Shown: positions 2,881-62,568, counted from the stretch's first letter. The stretch: 64,000 nucleotides of DNA from Rickettsia typhi (GCA_945872855.1 CAMCAW010000001.1:4108-68107); one strand, 5' to 3'. The notes: a model not told the origin generated them from the letters alone. A program made the numbers and translations.

Positions 2881-4701
2881 TTGAAAACATCACCTTCACT
2901 AAAAATGCTCCTCTTGGCACTTTCCCTAATGCAAATTACCGTTTGCGGGGCAAAAGCTCAAACCGCAGACCAAAACGCCATCAACCAACAAGATTGGATA
3001 ACGCGCCAACAGCAGAGCAAAATCGAAGAAGACCGCCGCTTGCGAGAGCAAGAAACAATCCGCAAAGAACGCACTCGCAAGAAAAAACAAGTTGAGCAAG
3101 AAGGTAAAAATCAAACCCCAATCTCAGGAAAACCAGCCGAATGCTTCCCAATAAAATCAATCAATCTTGTTGACGCTAGCTCGATTTCAAAACGAGAGCA
3201 GAAAAAACTTGCCACACCATTCATCGGCAAGTGCGTTGAAGCAAAAACTTTAACAGAAATAATCACCGCAATTCAAACTTTTTACAACAACGAAGGATAC
3301 GTAACAGCGCGCGTTTTTGTGCCAAAGCAAAATATTCAAAGCGGCAATTTAGAACTAAAAATTCTAGAAGGAAAAATTGATGAGATCATTGTGGGCGATA
3401 ATAATTTCACCGATAAAATGCAGGAATTTACTGCTTTTGGTTTTATGGAGGGGGATAGGCTGAATCTTGAAGATATAAATCAGGGAATTTATCAGATGAA
3501 CCGCCTTCAATCAAACAGCGCCACCATGAAAATTGAGCCTGCTGCAATTGAGGGCGAAGCCAAAGTTTATATCGCCAACCAAAAGAAATTTCCGGCGCGC
3601 GCAACAGTTGGTTATGATAATTTAGGAAATGAATTTACCGGAATTCACAGAACCAATTTTTCTGGCGGTTTAGATAATTTACTTTTCTTGAATGATGCGA
3701 TAAACCTAAGCTATTCAACGAATCTCAATGATGACAGCCAAGCCAAAGACATAAAATCTTTCACCTCAGGCATCTCAATTCCATTTAGCTATAACACTTT
3801 ATCTTACGATTATTCGAGATCGGAATTTCGCGGCACAAACCAAGGAATTAGCGGGCCAATTCGCTTAACTGGTTTTTCTGAGCGCAACAATGCCACAATC
3901 GATCGCGTTCTTTTAAACAAGGGAAATTTGCGAATTTCAACCAATGCTTCGCTTACTACAAAATCATCGGCCAGCTATTTGAATGGTGAAAAAATTGAAA
4001 CTTCTGAGCGCAAATTAACCATTGGAAATATTGGATTCACTATTTCTAATTACTTCAAAAACGGTGCTAATCTTTATCTCAAGCCTTCTTATTACAAGGG
4101 CCTCAAGCTATTAAACGCCAAGCAAGATGAAACAAATTTAACCAGCGACACGCCAAAAGCGCAGTTCGATTATTTCAAGCTTTACGCCTCAATTTCCAAG
4201 CGATTCACAATTCCTAAAGCCGAAATTCCGTTTACGCTTTCAACGGAAATAGACAGCCAATATTCTAAGCAAACGCTTTTTGGAACAGAGCAGTTTTCGG
4301 TGGGCGGATATTATTCGGTGCGAGGATTTCGTGAAAATTATATCACGGGCGATTCGGGCTATTACTTTCGCAACAAACTTAATTTTAACTTAGGCAGCTT
4401 AGTGCCCACTAGTTGGAAGTTTAAAAAAGAAAATGAAACCGCCGCCATTGGCACAAATTTTCTTTACCTGAATAATTTTGCCATTGAGCCATTTTACGAT
4501 TATGGCTATGTCAAAAATAAATATATAAACAGCGGAGCCAATGGCAGGCTTGCTGGCGCTGGCGTAAAAACCATTTTTAACAGCAGATATTTCAACGCCT
4601 CGCTAACTTATTCTTGGGCAACCGATCATTCTCGCTTGGTCACTTCAACCACAAAAGAAAACAAGCTGGTTTATTTTGAAATTAGCGCGAATTGCTGTTG
4701 A
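2881..4701 (+). CDS. ShlB/FhaC/HecB-family two-partner-secretion outer-membrane transporter (TpsB)
   Basis: Signal peptide, then a charged QQ/RK-rich linker. A POTRA-like block follows: CFPIKSINLVD...LTEIITAIQTFYNNEGYVTARVFVPKQNIQSGNLELKILEGKIDEI. The rest is a long beta-barrel region. Start may be the TTG at 2881 or the ATG at 2905. Confidence 0.9.
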   Translation: MKTSPSLKMLLLALSLMQITVCGAKAQTADQNAINQQDWITRQQQSKIEEDRRLREQETIRKERTRKKKQVEQEGKNQTPISGKPAECFPIKSINLVDASSISKREQKKLATPFIGKCVEAKTLTEIITAIQTFYNNEGYVTARVFVPKQNIQSGNLELKILEGKIDEIIVGDNNFTDKMQEFTAFGFMEGDRLNLEDINQGIYQMNRLQSNSATMKIEPAAIEGEAKVYIANQKKFPARATVGYDNLGNEFTGIHRTNFSGGLDNLLFLNDAINLSYSTNLNDDSQAKDIKSFTSGISIPFSYNTLSYDYSRSEFRGTNQGISGPIRLTGFSERNNATIDRVLLNKGNLRISTNASLTTKSSASYLNGEKIETSERKLTIGNIGFTISNYFKNGANLYLKPSYYKGLKLLNAKQDETNLTSDTPKAQFDYFKLYASISKRFTIPKAEIPFTLSTEIDSQYSKQTLFGTEQFSVGGYYSVRGFRENYITGDSGYYFRNKLNFNLGSLVPTSWKFKKENETAAIGTNFLYLNNFAIEPFYDYGYVKNKYINSGANGRLAGAGVKTIFNSRYFNASLTYSWATDHSRLVTSTTKENKLVYFEISANCC

Positions 4702-6899: not shown

Positions 6900-8117
6900 A
6901 TGAAAAAATATTATTTATTCCTACTTGCATTTTTGCTGCCTGTCGAGTGTTTTGCGGCAGAGCCTTTGCAATATGCTAAAGTGTTAAAAGAGCCACCAGA
7001 GCCAGCATTAAAGGTTGTCGCACAGTTGCGTGCAGAAAATGTTACGAGCGACGATTATCGAGATACTAATCACGCTGATGAATATGTTAATTCTGGCGCG
7101 AAAGTCAATTTTATTTCGAATGCCTTGTTGAATAAAAAATGGTTTTTGGAAGTAAATTTTCGTGCCGAGCAAGTGAAGTCGCAAAGTTCTGCAGAAAAAA
7201 ATTATGGCGGCGAGGGCGCTTATTTGCGTGAGGCGCGGCTTGGTTACAAAGATCGCAACCTCGTGCTATTTGCAGGAAAATTTCGGCCGTTTTTTGGTAT
7301 TGCATGGCGCAACGGGCGCAACAACTGGATGGATTACGCGGCAAATAATCAAGAGCAGTTCGACTATAACAATACGCGTGGCATTTGGAGTGACTATATC
7401 GCCAATAATTATGCACAAACAGAAAAGCTAGGAGTTGGTGGCGTTGTAAGGGCGGGCAATGCTAACACAATTGGGAAATATGAGCTTGGATTGAGTTTTT
7501 TCACCAACGATCGCAAGAATTTCGATAATTCTATCATAAGCAGCAGAATTTCTGCAGCCAAGCAAGACGCGCTTCCGGGCGATACTCGCTCTCTAAAATC
7601 TTATGTTACATCGCTTGATGTTGCTTTTGATTTTGCGCCAGATGAAAAATTATTTTATCGTTTTGCCTATATTAATCTTGCCACGAACAGCCTTGCCGCT
7701 AGCGTGCCGCCGTCTAAAATTGGCGATCAAAAAGGTGTTTCTGCGGCAATAAATTATCAATATCCTTTCTCGCAAAATTTTAATCTGAACGGTTTGGCAG
7801 AATATGTTTCGATGAAAAATGTTGGCGGAAATTCCGATCTTGGTGATCGATATTTTAACGGAAGTTTAGTGGGAAATATTTTTCAAAACTGGAATTTAAC
7901 CACTGCTTACGCTAGTCGCCAGAGTTTTCATCTTGGGCAAAATGGCTTCGATCAAAACATGATGGAAATTTCTGCGGGCTATCGTTTTGATAAAAATGCT
8001 TTCTTTGATAGCCTGCTTATTCAAACCGCTTACCGAAATTTGCGCACAGATTATCACGCAAGTTTAGATAGAAAAAACACAGTCGGAATTTTGGTGCGTT
8101 ACATAAAAAACTTTTGA
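6900..8117 (+). CDS. outer-membrane beta-barrel protein (porin-like), family not recognised
   Basis: Signal peptide MKKYYLFLLAFLLPVECFA. Amphipathic beta-strand-like pattern throughout. C-terminal aromatic terminus ...VRYIKNF. Confidence 0.6.
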   Translation: MKKYYLFLLAFLLPVECFAAEPLQYAKVLKEPPEPALKVVAQLRAENVTSDDYRDTNHADEYVNSGAKVNFISNALLNKKWFLEVNFRAEQVKSQSSAEKNYGGEGAYLREARLGYKDRNLVLFAGKFRPFFGIAWRNGRNNWMDYAANNQEQFDYNNTRGIWSDYIANNYAQTEKLGVGGVVRAGNANTIGKYELGLSFFTNDRKNFDNSIISSRISAAKQDALPGDTRSLKSYVTSLDVAFDFAPDEKLFYRFAYINLATNSLAASVPPSKIGDQKGVSAAINYQYPFSQNFNLNGLAEYVSMKNVGGNSDLGDRYFNGSLVGNIFQNWNLTTAYASRQSFHLGQNGFDQNMMEISAGYRFDKNAFFDSLLIQTAYRNLRTDYHASLDRKNTVGILVRYIKNF

Positions 8118-24638: not shown

Positions 24639-25136
24639 ATGAATAAAACAAAAATTGCAATCTATCCAGGAACTTTTGATCCGATCACTTTTGGGCATCT
24701 CGATATTATCAAACGCGCCAGTGAATTTATTGATCATTTGGTGATTGCTGTCGCTAAAGACACCGCCAAGAATCCTTTATTCACGCTGGCAGAAAGGGTT
24801 GAGCTGGTAGAAGATGAGGTAGCAAATTTGGGCAGCGATACAAAAATTTCGGTTGAGCAATTTGAAGGATTGCTAGTAGATTTTGCTGTAAAAAAAGGTG
24901 CACGACTAATTATTCGCGGTCTGCGCGCCGTTTCTGATTTTGAATATGAATTTCAAATGTTCGGCATGAATGCAAAATTAAATCCCGAAATTCAAACAAT
25001 ATTTTTGCCTGCCTCAGAAAATAATCATTTTATCGCATCGAAGTTCGTAAAAGAAGTGGCGCGGCTTGGCGGCGATGTTACAAATTTTGTTTCGCCTTAC
25101 GTGGTAAAAAAACTTAAGGAAAAAATGAAAATTTAA
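24639..25136 (+). CDS. coaD: phosphopantetheine adenylyltransferase
   Basis: AIYPGTFDPITFGHLDII nucleotidyltransferase motif. 165 aa. Confidence 0.95.
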   Translation: MNKTKIAIYPGTFDPITFGHLDIIKRASEFIDHLVIAVAKDTAKNPLFTLAERVELVEDEVANLGSDTKISVEQFEGLLVDFAVKKGARLIIRGLRAVSDFEYEFQMFGMNAKLNPEIQTIFLPASENNHFIASKFVKEVARLGGDVTNFVSPYVVKKLKEKMKI

Positions 25137-25303
25137 AAGTTAAGTTAGAAAAAAGTTAAGTGAAAATATGATAAAAAAGAATTCTCGACTATCTTAGTCT
25201 CGCCCCTAGACGGCACGCCGAAGCGGGGCGAGACTAAGATAGTCGAGAATTCTTTTTTATCATATTTTCACTTAACTTTTTTCTAACTTAACTTTTAAAT
25301 TTT
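25128..25303. repeat. 176-bp perfect palindrome (79-bp arms, 18-nt loop TAGACGGCACGCCGAAGC); member 1 of a conserved-loop long-hairpin family
   Basis: I checked base by base that 25128-25206 is the exact reverse complement of 25225-25303. The loop is 25207-25224. The left arm overlaps the last 9 nt of coaD, including its stop codon. Confidence 0.95.
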
Positions 25304-48187: not shown

Positions 48188-48268
48188 ATTAACAGGCTTG
48201 CTCGAATAACGTGCGAATCAAAGACCGAAGTATTTCTTTTTGATAGTTCGCAGAACTTCAATTATAAA

Positions 48269-48682
48269 TGTAAGGCAAGCTATAAGCCGGATTTTGTACT
48301 GTTTGCACAGCAATGATCATTCGTCTAGGACCAGCGTCGCCACTGGCCTCAAGCAACCTACCCGGATGACAACTCAAAGACAAGTCTGCATATTGCTATG
48401 CGCGCCATCCCTATTTGGTCTTGCTCCTAGCGGGGTTTTTCGAGATGCATGTTACCATGCAAAGCGGTGAGCTCTTACCTCGCCTTTTCACCCTTACCGC
48501 CGGCGTTTAAAGGCAGGCGGCGGTATATTCTCTGTGACACTTTCCCTCCACAAGCCCTATATATTCAAGCTTGCAGGCCAGCTCTTAACTGGTGCTATTT
48601 CCTTGCGGAGTCCGGACTTTCCTCTTATTTTCATCGCCATTTTGCAATAGCGAAAAACAAGCGACCATCCACTTGCCTTACA
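48269..48682 (-). ncRNA. rnpB: RNase P RNA (bacterial type A)
   Basis: The minus strand reads ...AAGAGGAAAGTCCGGACTCCGCAAGG... (CR-I), AGGGTGAAAAGGCGAGGTAAGAGCTCACC, and ACAAAATCCGGCTTATAGCTTGCCTTACA at the 3' end. The P1 helix is GTAAGGCAAGT (5') pairing with AGCTTGCCTTAC (3'). The region is locally GC-rich and has no credible CDS. Confidence 0.9.
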
Positions 48683-48832: not shown

Positions 48833-49999
48833 ATGAAAACGGTTTTATCAGGAATTCAGCCTTCTGGCAATTTGCATTTGGGCAATTATTTGGGATCTAT
48901 CCGCAACTGGATTGGCTTGCAAGATTCGCATCGCTGTTTGTTTGGGGTGATGAATTTGCACGCGATCACGGTGGCTCAAGATCCGCTTGTGTTGCGGCAA
49001 AATATTTTTGATGCGGCGGCGGTTTATTTGGCTTGCGGGTTAGATCCGAAGAAGGCGAGTATTTTTGTGCAGGGGGAAGTGCGTGAGCATGTAGAGTTGG
49101 CGTGGGTTCTTGGGTGTTTAACGCCGATGGGGTGGTTGGATAGAATGACGCAGTTTAAGGATAAAACCAGTATTTCAAATACGTTGGAAAATGCAATTAC
49201 AAAGTCACCTAAAAGTGTTTATAATTTATTTGAATCTTGCTATAAAGAATTAAAACAAGAAGAAGGTTTTAAGCAATTAAAATTGAGCGATGATTACATA
49301 GCTAAGTTGGATAAAGGTGGATTTTTTGAGATTTTAGTAAAAATTTTAGAAGATTCTCGACGTGATCAAGCGCATCTTGGCCTCTACTCCTACCCCGTTC
49401 TAATGGCCGCCGATATTCTACTTTACCACGCAGATCTCGTGCCTGTCGGTGAAGACCAAAAACAGCATCTCGAGCTTACGCGCGACTTAGCTGGTGCTTT
49501 CAACCGCCGCTACAAAACAGAATATTTCAAACTGCCCGAGCCCATGATTCTCAAGGACACAAAGCGCATCATGTCCCTTCAAGACGGCACCAAAAAAATG
49601 TCGAAATCCGATGAATCCGATCTCTCGCGCATCAACCTTGAAGACGCGCCAGAGTTGATTGTAAAGAAGGTGAAAAAGGCCAAAACCGATTCTCTCACCG
49701 AAATTTCTTACGACGAAAATCGCCCCGAAATTTACAACTTACTCAACATCTTCGCCAGCATGTCAGGCAGGCTTCCGCAGGCTATCGCCGAAGAATATAA
49801 AACCGCAGGAAACGGCAAATTTAAAGGCGATCTCGCAGAAATTATAGTTGAAAATTTGCGTCCAATCCAAGATAATCTGGTGCGCTTCAAGCAAGATAGC
49901 GGCTTTATCGCTAATGTTTTGCGGCAAGGCCAAGAAGATGCGACAAAAATTGCCAGCAAAACTCGCCAAGAAGTTTTTAAATTGGTTGGGTTAATTTAG
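48833..49999 (+). CDS. trpS: tryptophan--tRNA ligase (with a ~60-aa internal insertion)
   Basis: PSGNLHLGNY (HIGH-type), YPVLMAADILLY, VPVGEDQKQHLELTRD, KMSKS. 388 aa versus the ~330 typical. Confidence 0.93.
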   Translation: MKTVLSGIQPSGNLHLGNYLGSIRNWIGLQDSHRCLFGVMNLHAITVAQDPLVLRQNIFDAAAVYLACGLDPKKASIFVQGEVREHVELAWVLGCLTPMGWLDRMTQFKDKTSISNTLENAITKSPKSVYNLFESCYKELKQEEGFKQLKLSDDYIAKLDKGGFFEILVKILEDSRRDQAHLGLYSYPVLMAADILLYHADLVPVGEDQKQHLELTRDLAGAFNRRYKTEYFKLPEPMILKDTKRIMSLQDGTKKMSKSDESDLSRINLEDAPELIVKKVKKAKTDSLTEISYDENRPEIYNLLNIFASMSGRLPQAIAEEYKTAGNGKFKGDLAEIIVENLRPIQDNLVRFKQDSGFIANVLRQGQEDATKIASKTRQEVFKLVGLI

Positions 50000-50106: not shown

Positions 50107-51093
50107 ATGCCATTTTCCAATAAAACACAAAACCTCTCCGATGCCGATTTAGTCAAGGAAATCGCGCGTTTGAAGCAAGAGCAAAATGCCGTAATTTTGG
50201 CGCATTTTTATCAAGATGAAGCAATTCAAGATATTGCAGATTTCGTTGGCGATTCACTAGACCTATCGCGCAAGGCTGCCGCTACTGATGCCGATGTGAT
50301 TGTATTTTGCGGCGTAAAATTTATGGCTGAAGTTGCAAAAATTTTATCGCCAAGCAAGAAGGTTTTGATTCCCGATTTTAAGGCGGGCTGCAGTTTGGAA
50401 GAATCTTGTCCGCCAGCGCAGTTCGCGGCTTTCAAGCAGCAGCATCTCGATGCGATTGTTGTCACTTACATCAATTGTTCTGCTGAAATTAAGGCGCTTT
50501 CTGATATAATTGTTACTTCAACTAACGCCAAAAAAATCATCGATCAAATTCCATTATCGCAAAAAATTATTTTTGCGCCAGATCAACATCTCGGTCGCTA
50601 CCTCAATAAAATCACGGGTCGCAACATGATTTTGTGGCATGGCAGTTGTATTGTTCACGAGCAATTCAGCGAGAAAGAATTGGTGAAGTTGATGGCGAAT
50701 CATCCGCAAGCCTTGGTAATAGCGCATCCTGAATGCCCTGAGAATTTGTTGGCGCATGCGCATCACATTGGCTCTACTTCATCGCTAATTAACTTTGCGC
50801 AAGATCGTCAAGGCGGCGAGTTTATTGTGTTGACCGAGCCGCATATTATTCACCAAATGCGGCAAAAAAATCCTAGCGCAAAATTTTACGATTGTCCCTT
50901 TGTAGACAAAGCTGGCTGTAGCCTTTGCAACACTTGCCCTTATATGGGATTGAATAGTTTGGAGAAGATTTATTTGGTGATGAAAAATAGCGCAGAAGGT
51001 GCGTTGAATAAGGTTGGCGGCGAGTTAGCGCTAGATGAAGCCTTGCGTTTGAAGGCTGAGAGACCATTGCGCAAGATGCTTGAGATGTCGTAG
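50107..51093 (+). CDS. nadA: quinolinate synthase
   Basis: [26 protein letters not shown]. Cys ligands in SCIVHE / CPYM contexts. 328 aa. Confidence 0.93.
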
Positions 51094-51099
51094 GTTTTT

Positions 51100-51233
51100 A
51101 AAATTCGAAATTGAAATTATTAAATAAAGTCTGCCTTATCTTACTTAGTTCAAGCCCTAGACGGCACGCCGAAGCGGGTTTGAACTAAGTAAGATAAGGC
51201 AGACTTTACTTAATAATTTCAATCTAGAATTTT
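51100..51233. repeat. 134-bp long hairpin (58-bp arms, 4 non-Watson-Crick positions) with loop TAGACGGCACGCCGAAGC; family member 2
   Basis: 51100-51157 pairs with 51176-51233. The exceptions are 51107/51226, 51109/51224, 51124/51209 and a G-T at 51154/51179. The loop (51158-51175) is identical to the loop at 25207-25224. The element fills the spacer between convergent nadA and the GNAT gene. Confidence 0.92.
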
Positions 51234-51794
51234 CTAAGTTAAGAATTCTTCGCGCAAAATACTAAACATATAAACATCAACCAACTTGCCACGATGGTAG
51301 CGGTGTTGGCGCAAGCAGCCTTCATATTTAAATCCGCATTTTTCTAGCAGGCGCACCGAAGCTTCGTTGTAAGTTGAGGTTACGGCTTCAATACGGTTTA
51401 TCGCCATCACTTTAAATCCGTAGCGCAATAATTCGAGCACAGCTTTTGTCATAATGCCGCGACGCCAATATTCTTGCGCCATATCATAGCTAAGTTCAAT
51501 GCGATTGTGATAGGTATTGTGCGAGCTAAAGCCGATTGAGCCAATCATACTATCGTCTTTTTTGTCAGCGATGGCGAAGTAAATTCCGTCATTATTATAG
51601 AAAACATTGCGCCAATAATAAAGCTCGCGACGCGCGTCTTCTAAGCTTTGCGGCACTTCGGTAAGGATATATTTATTAACTTCGGGGTCGGTGTAATATT
51701 TAAAAAAATCAGGCACGTCTTTATCTTGTTGTTCGCGCAAAACAAACTCGCCAAGATCGATTATTGGAAAAATTTTATTTGTAGATGGATACAT
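51234..51794 (-). CDS. GNAT-family N-acetyltransferase (RimJ/RimL-like)
   Basis: 186 aa; acetyl-CoA-binding region YWRRGIMTKAV. Typical RimJ-like length. Confidence 0.8.
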   Translation of the reverse strand: MYPSTNKIFPIIDLGEFVLREQQDKDVPDFFKYYTDPEVNKYILTEVPQSLEDARRELYYWRNVFYNNDGIYFAIADKKDDSMIGSIGFSSHNTYHNRIELSYDMAQEYWRRGIMTKAVLELLRYGFKVMAINRIEAVTSTYNEASVRLLEKCGFKYEGCLRQHRYHRGKLVDVYMFSILREEFLT

Positions 51795-57656: not shown

Positions 57657-57813
57657 GTGTAAAACTTTTAAGAATGTTAATTAAATTTCTCTTAAGTTTA
57701 TAATTCTCTCTTGCCTTACTCGCCCCTCTTCGGCGTGCCGTCTAGGGGGGCAAGGCAGAGAGAGAATTATAAACTTAAGAGAAATTTAATTAACATTCTT
57801 AAAAGTTTTACAC
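57657..57813. repeat. 157-bp long hairpin (54-bp perfect outer arms) with loop TCTTCGGCGTGCCGTCTA, the reverse complement of TAGACGGCACGCCGAAGA; family member 3, inverted orientation
   Basis: 57657-57710 is the exact reverse complement of 57760-57813. The inner stem is imperfect: tgcctt/aaggca and cccc/gggg helices separated by an asymmetric bulge. The loop is 57727-57744. Confidence 0.92.
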
Positions 57814-62456: not shown

Positions 62457-62568
62457 GTTTGTAGAAGTGAGTGGATTATTTACCTGACTAAAATGTGTCA
62501 CGTTATGTCTCTGCAGGACACGCTGACGCATTTTGAGTTGGGTAAATAATCCACTCACTTCTACAAAC
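62457..62568. repeat. 112-nt long hairpin (28-bp perfect outer stem) in the divergent dadA/addB promoter region
   Basis: 62457-62484 (gtttgtagaagtgagtggattatttacc) is the exact reverse complement of 62541-62568. Imperfect pairing continues inward (aaaatgtgtca / tgacgcatttt; tgtc / gaca). The centre is unrelated to the TAGACGGCACGCCGAAG core. Confidence 0.9.

Follow-up and report, generated by a model that had tools for sequence, protein, structure and literature searches.

The hairpin at positions 51100 to 51233 of the window (the whole 64,000-nucleotide stretch of DNA analyzed here) is one of a family of long palindromes that share a loop sequence and are located at the 3' ends of genes. With roughly even confidence, we explain these hairpins as a lineage-specific family of mobile, or formerly mobile, palindromic repeats of the REP/MITE type, in which the arms are kept paired by arm-to-arm copying and the apex serves as a recognition site. 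According to this explanation, palindromic units would have inserted whole at the extreme 3' ends of genes, in an ancestor of this organism and its closest relative, and the host would be an uncultured Rickettsiales-like alphaproteobacterium.

The hairpin under study (member 2 of the family) lies between the convergent genes nadA and a GNAT gene. The nadA TAG stop codon is located at 51091-51093, and the hairpin starts at the seventh base after it, leaving 6 nt between them. On the other side, the GNAT stop codon at 51234-51236 (CTA on the plus strand) abuts the last arm base, 51233. Thus, the ORF coordinates agree with the original prediction of an element that starts 7 nt past the nadA stop codon, extends up to the GNAT stop codon without including it and fills the spacer between the two genes, of which it occupies 134 of the 140 bases. 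Reading of the protein sequences showed that the GNAT protein ends in ...REEFLT*, and that its relatives end in ...REEFL*, ...REEFLAK* or ...REDFVA*.

The predicted pairing of 58-bp arms with four non-Watson-Crick positions was likewise found at 51100-51157 and 51176-51233, with the four exceptions read from the sequence at arm positions 8, 10, 25 and 55. Read from the inverted repeat, one of these positions is a G-U wobble on the plus strand and two are on the minus strand. The pooled arms are 28% G+C, and the foot of the hairpin reads AAAATT (A-rich) on the 5' side and GAATTTT on the 3' side. RNA folding gave -77.8 kcal/mol for the plus strand (z -14.2) and -82.0 kcal/mol for the minus strand (z -17.0), and DNA folding gave -50 kcal/mol (z -13.8); in each case, 0 of 200 shuffled sequences were as stable. 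Both strands are predicted to form a single continuous hairpin. At the apex, the RNA and DNA folds of the loop TAGACGGCACGCCGAAGC predict a CGG/CCG mini-stem enclosing a CACG loop. In the predicted RNA folds of both strands, this 3-bp stem lies within a 4x4 internal loop, and on the minus strand the CGG/CCG pairs would enclose a CGUG loop. The minus-strand transcript had been expected to display a C(UUCG)G loop; the CUUCGG sequence is indeed present, but the predicted fold does not contain that tetraloop.

Table 1. Positions of the genes, the hairpin parts and the family members, and the nadA-GNAT junction in relatives.
Feature	Sequence	Positions	Strand or locus	Description
nadA (quinolinate synthase)	window	50107..51093	+	ORF; Pfam NadA; homologues
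GNAT gene (Acetyltransf_3)	window	51234..51794	-	Pfam match; convergent with nadA
Member 2, left arm	window	51100..51157	+	58 nt; inverted repeat, 93% complementary to right arm
Member 2, apical loop TAGACGGCACGCCGAAGC	window	51158..51175	+	18 nt, 67% G+C
Member 2, right arm	window	51176..51233	+	last base directly before GNAT stop codon
Family member 1	window	25128..25303	+	79-nt perfect arms, same loop; left arm supplies last codons and stop of coaD
Family member 3	window	57657..57813	-	whole element inverted; loop 17/18; outer 55 nt of arms perfect; inner-arm indel
L068 element	GCA_947455365.1 (L068)	7046-7233	ftsY-trpE spacer	palindrome, 62-nt perfect arms
nadA-GNAT junction	L049 and five further contigs of same species			6-nt gene overlap (tcaTAA)
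nadA-GNAT junction	L067			9-nt spacer
nadA-GNAT junction	L068			18-nt spacer
nadA-GNAT junction	L066			83-nt spacer, fold no better than shuffles (z -0.6)
nadA-GNAT junction	L055			two extra ORFs between the genes

Fold-back artefacts can arise from short-read assemblers, and contigs do break in these palindromes: among contigs from other samples, L070 begins within the arm of member 3 and L072 ends within the arm of member 1. Nevertheless, it is exceedingly improbable that member 2 is an assembly artefact or a chance palindrome. It is internal to a long contig, is flanked by conserved genes, carries four arm mismatches and folds with z scores of -14 to -17 that were matched by 0 of 200 shuffles. 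Furthermore, it is present in the ENA copy of the contig (L048/L071), which is possibly the same assembly; part of member 3 is found in an independent Logan assembly (positions 1-30 of L070 correspond to window positions 57784-57813); and another sample contains the member 1 arm as a diverged orthologue. Because of these last three observations, we do not consider member 2 to be an assembly artefact. As palindromes fragment short-read assemblies, families of this kind are probably under-reported in MAGs.

A mismatch-tolerant scan of the whole window recovered three copies of the loop TAGACGGCACGCCGAAGC, at 25207-25224 (plus strand, exact), 51158-51175 (plus strand, exact) and 57727-57744 (minus strand, one mismatch, 17/18), compared with 0.05 expected, and 0 of 100 shuffles reached three. 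Every copy (n=3) is the center of a long palindrome, which upholds the earlier proposal of a hairpin family with a constant loop, including the identity of the member 1 and member 2 loops. Together with one homologue in a relative (the L068 element), these three window copies form the family sample. All four are at gene 3' ends, next to housekeeping ORFs, and two of them (member 1 and the L068 element) supply the last codons and the stop codon of the neighboring gene; in member 1, the coaD stop lies inside the arm. The stop codon of the aspartate kinase gene precedes member 3 by 11 nt. With respect to the transcription around them, the elements as wholes do not share one orientation. Member 1 lies in the sense direction, both member 3 and the L068 element lie in the antisense direction, and member 2, between its convergent genes, is in sense with nadA but antisense to the GNAT gene. 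The termini are highly AT-rich, and the copies are few. Members 1 and 2 begin with AAAATT(T/C) and end with (A/G)AATTTT, member 3 begins with GTGTAAAAC and the L068 element begins with AAGATTAT. Reading of the flanks of the four copies revealed no consistent direct repeat that would represent a target-site duplication.

A second family of long hairpins was observed at window positions 62457-62568 (37-nt arms and a 38-nt center, beside a DAO-family gene) and at L068 positions 4343-4466 (41-nt arms and a 42-nt center, between trpS and nadA). These two hairpins have the center motif AAAATnnGTCAGCGyGTC...CGTGAC...TTTT in common and differ in their outer arms. Their design, a conserved G+C-rich center with variable AT-rich arms, is the same as that of members 1 to 3.

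The arms of members 1 and 2 were compared in register, counting from the loop. Identity was found at 32 of 58 positions, and an offset of 0 was the best of 25 tried, with a shuffle p of ~0.0004 without the CCC clamp. Arm positions 31-58 alone matched at 18 of 28 (p ~0.01). Global alignment against shuffles gave z scores of 2.9 for member 1 versus member 2, 5-6 for member 1 versus member 3 and 1.9 for member 2 versus member 3. Strict local alignment had shown similarity only in the inner ~27 nt of members 1 and 3 and had hinted at unrelated arms, a picture that the in-register and global tests overturn. These two tests also contradict the original prediction that the arms of members 1 and 2 share nothing beyond the loop-proximal ~20 bp; judged by sequence comparison, these arms are strongly diverged homologues. 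Global alignments of the arms to reverse complements were not significant, and because of this member 3 is taken as the whole element in the opposite orientation. An inversion of the loop alone by template switching was rejected for member 3, as its arms align to those of member 1 only in the sense of the loop. We also rejected the idea that the arms were copied from neighboring genes or acquired elsewhere: no other arm copy was found in the window or in any of the relative loci compared.

These alignments bear on a nested origin, in which each locus would have had an AT-rich palindrome of its own (e.g. a terminator) and a small mobile module, G+C-rich and directed to the tips of hairpins, was later added at its apex. 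Identical loops on diverged stems are what such an origin would produce, the hairpins at window 62457-62568 and L068 4343-4466 share their center motif and not their arms, and insertion sequences that target palindrome loops are known, namely IS1397 and ISKpn1 in REP units. However, the arms of the copies are homologous in loop register over their whole length, which is not expected of independent palindromes, and the similarity between copies declines gradually outward from the loop with no sharp module boundary. In addition, no palindrome is present at any of the three sites in relatives, and every long AT-rich palindrome in the window has a G+C-rich center. We therefore regard a nested origin as very doubtful.

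By its NadA homologues, the organism falls among uncultured 'Rickettsiales bacterium' MAGs. The nadA-GNAT junction was compared in five relatives with NadA proteins 85-90% identical to that of the window (L049, L055, L066, L067 and L068; Table 1), and neither the hairpin, nor the loop (with up to four substitutions), nor either arm was found at this position in any of them. In a further relative, with a 91% identical NadA, the gene table shows a 30-nt gap between nadA and the GNAT gene. Similar results were obtained for the other two sites. The aspartate kinase - DEAD-box helicase spacer that contains member 3 is 66-81 nt in L049 and L066, compared with 200 nt in the window, and member 3 is absent; the spacer between coaD and an ELM1-family gene that contains member 1 is 24 nt in L073 (CoaD 91% identical), compared with 182 nt in the window, and the hairpin is again absent. 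These presence/absence contrasts are between fairly distant relatives. Because the five relatives have a gene overlap, an unstructured spacer of 9-83 nt or two extra genes at the nadA-GNAT junction, the hairpin is an insertion that did not replace a terminator. Thus, the suggestion that it had replaced a simple terminator did not hold, given the overlapping stop codons, the spacers of 9-18 nt and the unstructured 83-nt spacer (z -0.6), and the alternative that both arms pre-existed in orthologous spacers found no support in these relatives, none of which carries them. We also found no support for deriving one arm from the ancestral spacer and the other from an inverted copy of it: at the member 2 site, relatives have hardly any spacer, and at this divergence the spacers cannot be aligned.

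Several other differences between the window and its relatives were observed. The nadA-GNAT-ftsY neighborhood is an insertion hot spot in relatives: in L055, two extra ORFs (95 and 307 aa, 10997-12232) with no Pfam match lie between nadA and the GNAT gene, and in L049, a PcfJ-like gene (11633-12769) lies between the GNAT gene and ftsY. The window trpS gene (48833-49999) encodes a 64-aa in-frame insertion (…ISNTLENAITKSPKSVYNLFESCYKELKQEEGFKQLKLSDDYIAKLDKGGFFEILVKILEDSRR…) at 49172-49364 that is absent in three relatives with TrpS proteins 82-88% identical; this inserted segment is no palindrome, and its fold is no more stable than those of shuffled sequences. Finally, a 1921-aa ORF with a TrbL/VirB6 domain at window positions 26318-32083, which we take to encode a giant VirB6-like protein of the type typical of Rickettsiales, fits the taxonomic placement.

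A homologue of the family was found at a different locus in L068, whose NadA is 85% identical to that of the window. This element lies between ftsY and trpE, a position at which the window has no spacer, and its arm aligns with the member 2 arm at z 4.5 (global alignment against shuffles). Its center includes TAGATGGCGCATCTGCCCGAGGAGCAGGGC, a sequence that aligns to TAGACGGCAC-GCCGA-AGCGGGGC of the window family, as well as ~40 additional bases that fold into a further inner hairpin. The right arm encodes a new TrpE tail, ...RACEKMVKLEDYFVEN, in place of ...RACEKINIR in the window; this tail ends in EDYFVEN*, and the trpE stop lies inside the arm. As one copy is at a locus without a spacer in the window, copies occupy different loci in different species, and sequence comparison indicates a superfamily that is older than the split of these species. 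The apex is constant within the window genome and has diverged in L068. In the L068 element, the loop part GATGGCGCAT has gained an upstream inverted copy, ATGCGCCATC, such that the loop becomes stem and an inner hairpin is added. This inner hairpin looks like inward growth of the palindrome by template switching.

The evolution of the arms was assessed using L072, which encodes a CoaD 96% identical to that of the window and carries an orthologue of member 1. The CoaD tail KMKI* is shared by L072 and the window, and more distant relatives have KMRAV*, KIKTA* and similar tails. Between L072 and the window, coaD DNA is 87% identical over all positions and 69% identical at third codon positions, and the upstream spacer cannot be aligned. 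In the member 1 arm, the outer 19 nt do not differ, and the ungapped portion of the alignment has matches at 24 of its first 25 positions; the rest of the arm is ~70% identical, with indels. Thus, the member 1 arm has drifted at about the synonymous, or neutral, rate (~70% versus 69% at third positions). The L072 contig ends within this arm (L072 558-610), such that only the left arm is seen, and a search for the downstream-gene orthologue of the L072 organism gave no close relative. Because the right arm and the loop of L072 were not recovered, the mirroring of changes between arms is deduced indirectly rather than seen directly. The deduction is as follows. The two arms of member 1 in the window pair at 79 of 79 positions, whereas independent drift of ~15% per site and arm predicts ~21 mismatches and a probability of finding none of ~1e-11. 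Since this arm has drifted almost neutrally and yet pairs at every position, either the arms evolve in concert or selection for pairing is very strong. Template switching between the arms of inverted repeats, a process that is reported to homogenize and expand arms and to create and maintain RNA hairpins, is described in published work (PMC8604942, PMC13100816, PMC8794818, PMC5941160).

Homogenization of the arms, as proposed originally, is therefore supported through member 1. For member 2, the companion claim of greater age is not supported, since four mismatches cannot separate an older copy from one that was less recently homogenized. These four mismatches would represent changes that await mirroring. 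Arm length might change in a similar manner. The member 1 arm contains an 11-nt direct repeat, AAAAGTTAAGT, at 25135-25145 and 25151-25161 (starts 16 nt apart) that is mirrored in the right arm, and the member 2 arm contains a tandem GAAATT GAAATT that is mirrored in its partner. It appears that the arms lengthen by small duplications that are later copied to the partner arm.

The constraint on the apex differs from that on the stem. Among the family copies, the arms are 27-31% G+C versus 61-67% for the loop, and between copies the arms are at most 55% identical while the loop is identical at 18/18 or 17/18 positions, so that conservation is confined to the loop and a clamp of 3-4 bp. The probability of an 18/18 loop is 0.0016 at 70% identity and far lower at 55%. 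These values indicate that the sequence of the apex is constrained in this genome, whereas pairing is the only constraint on the stem. This constraint appears to reflect ongoing selection, because a constraint from mobilization alone predicts that recently moved copies share their arms, and the arms differ. The foot of the hairpin may matter too: for the outer end of member 1, identity between L072 and the window at 24 or more of 25 positions has p ~0.0016 at 70% identity.

A constant loop on a covarying stem is also the classic signature of a functional RNA. The hairpins could represent a dedicated structured 3'-UTR RNA with a regulon-like distribution, rather than mobile DNA, in which a purine-rich internal loop and the mini-hairpin at the tip bind a protein or direct processing. 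The two perfect-loop copies (members 1 and 2) are oriented such that UAGACGGCACGCCGAAGC is in the sense transcript of the gene upstream, coaD and nadA, respectively, and the predicted folding is highly stable. However, member 3 and the L068 homologue are inverted as whole elements relative to flanking transcription, and the mixed orientation of the family argues against a strand-specific RNA function and favors recognition at the DNA level, an orientation-independent structural role, or both. The mismatches in member 2 favor neither RNA strand (one G-U pair on plus, two on minus), the flanking genes are functionally unrelated, and arms of 58-79 bp exceed by far the usual need of an RNA and are typical of palindromes that act as DNA. 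Moreover, no Rfam family was matched at threshold, and the matches obtained were to generic, miRNA-precursor-like hairpins far below their gathering scores. On balance, we find a dedicated RNA rather unlikely.

We assign a similarly low probability to the hairpins being a chromosomal DNA signal spread by ordinary duplication and retained for its function, with a duplex or cruciform apex that binds a nucleoid, replication, recombination or DNA-uptake protein and arms that ease extrusion or bending. This would agree with their occurrence in either orientation, with the difference in G+C content between arms (27-31%) and loop (61-67%), and with an apex that is conserved in the genome and diverged in a related species, which resembles motif dialects that co-evolve with a binding protein. 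In contrast, no candidate for such a protein was found in the 64-kb window, the apex to our knowledge does not resemble the dif, parS, DnaA or Ter consensus sequences, and the copies, three in 64 kb, are all at gene 3' ends and show no chromosomal periodicity.

Whatever its origin, the hairpin would be met by both of the convergent transcripts, from nadA and from GNAT, as a structure of ~58 bp. In either orientation, it might block transcription or serve as a structure at 3' ends, and a duplex of this length would be a probable RNase III substrate. A consensus scan for intrinsic terminators did not call the member 2 hairpin. Such a terminator has a short, G+C-rich stem-loop followed by a U-tract; the stem here is 58 bp and 28% G+C, and the only U run comprises four bases, which are the last four of the stem and thus inside it. 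Across the genome sequence analyzed, there is no enrichment of terminator-like sites (22 found versus 23.8 expected in a simple consensus scan against shuffles), and the element places a very strong hairpin between convergent genes. At most, we suggest the presence of an orientation-independent hairpin at transcript ends, from which a role in termination, insulation or RNase III processing might follow. Such a role would be a by-product or exaptation, in which no older terminator was replaced.

To return to the mobile repeat family that we favor, changes in one arm would be copied to the other by template switching during replication or by repair templated on the hairpin, which would keep the arms complementary. 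Small tandem duplications, subsequently mirrored, would make the arms longer. Sequence constraint would act solely on the G+C-rich apex (the loop with its CCC/GGG clamp), most likely through recognition on folded DNA by a lineage-specific protein, either a mobilizing enzyme or a host factor, and the only requirement on the stem would be a long duplex. Neither a transposase, a RAYT nor any other candidate for a partner protein was identified in the 64 kb, of whose ORFs a minority was covered by the Pfam scan. If this reading holds, the elements reshape gene ends, providing CoaD, the GNAT protein and TrpE with new stop codons and C-terminal tails, and they offer a natural experiment on the persistence of long perfect palindromes in a bacterial chromosome. 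Near-neutral change of the stem without loss of pairing would then be among the clearest genomic evidence for arm-to-arm homogenization, by template switching or conversion, in bacteria. A fixed tip on a free stem would also imply a mode of recognition unlike that of REP-RAYT systems or transposon ends.

A more far-reaching possibility, which we consider unlikely, is that the hairpins form an undescribed class of palindromic elements defined by their apex, in which a lineage-specific protein reads only the G+C-rich tip of the folded DNA or RNA, and the AT-rich stems drift, grow by mirrored duplication and become perfect again through template switching. In that case, the recognized and the free parts would be the inverse of those in REP/REPIN and MITE elements, and the second family (window 62457-62568 and L068 4343-4466) would make this design a general feature of a Rickettsiales-like clade.

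Database searches returned no relatives of the element. In Rfam 15, no family was matched at the gathering threshold; the best match was MIR2606 (58.9 bits versus 139.7), and all matches were generic hairpins. Searches by blastn against phage and plasmid records gave nothing meaningful. An exact 17-mer of the loop had 47 single matches among GTDB species representatives, in unrelated and mostly G+C-rich genomes, none with complementary flanks, and 4 matches in IMG/VR, none of them a hairpin; an exact 19-mer had 4 matches in JGI metagenomes, again with no hairpin. A match in L060 was rejected as a short-armed copy and judged to be due to chance, because it falls within the final codons of an ORF, comes from an unrelated contig and has no significant fold (z -1.6). 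The sole Rfam match in the whole window is a class A RNase P RNA at 48267-48680 (minus strand); the class A RNase P RNA of L068 (2552-3023, minus strand) contains an 83-nt near-perfect internal hairpin at 2778-2860 that the repeat finder reported as a palindrome.

Two known classes of hairpin differ from the element in their basic layout. Integron attC sites have conserved boxes (R''/L''...L'/R') at the hairpin base and a variable center, whereas here the conservation is at the tip, and neither an integrase nor a cassette array was found near any copy. Bidirectional intrinsic terminators are similar in that the hairpin lies exactly between convergent stop codons, with an A-rich 5' foot and GAATTTT at the 3' foot. 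They differ in having G+C-rich stems of 5-14 bp, compared with the AT-rich stem of 58 bp that includes the four-U run, and relatives have no terminator at this site.

MITE-like palindromic repeats include the Rickettsia palindromic elements (RPE), Correia/NEMIS and ERIC, which form long hairpins of ~100-180 bp at or in gene ends. These families are conserved along the whole element or in terminal inverted repeats, and usually have target-site duplications. The hairpins described here are like them in being present in some lineages and absent at orthologous sites in others, and in providing neighboring genes with new C-terminal codons and stops, as seen here for coaD and for trpE of L068. However, they show no clear terminal conservation and no visible duplication, and their conservation is at the tip. 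In-frame insertion inside ORFs is frequent for RPE, and the copies seen here are at the ends of ORFs.

REP/REPIN elements, which are associated with a RAYT (TnpA-REP) transposase, are short non-coding palindromic repeats of intergenic regions that are thought to be recognized as folded DNA by a cognate protein (PMC3116915, PMC8266576). The family resembles them in its intergenic dispersal, often at gene 3' ends, in its long hairpins, and in its homogeneity within a genome and difference between species. In REP/REPIN, however, the stem (REP with its 5' tetranucleotide) is conserved and the loop varies, whereas here the apex is conserved and the stems are ~55% identical, and the arms of 58-79 bp exceed the ~20-35 bp found there. 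A stem sequence that is kept among the copies of one genome, as is characteristic of REP, was not observed, since the arms are at most 55% identical.

Hairpins corrected by template switching (quasipalindrome correction) provide a further parallel, as their arms remain paired while drifting almost neutrally and acquire small mirrored duplications (PMC8794818, PMC8604942, PMC13100816, PMC5941160). As presented in these sources, this is a mutational process at single loci rather than a dispersed family with an invariant apex, and it would account for the upkeep of the arms but not for insertion or loop conservation. Altogether, the hairpins otherwise resemble known bacterial palindromic repeats, of which they appear to be an unusual variant, with a fixed tip and a free stem that are the reverse of the arrangement in known repeat families.
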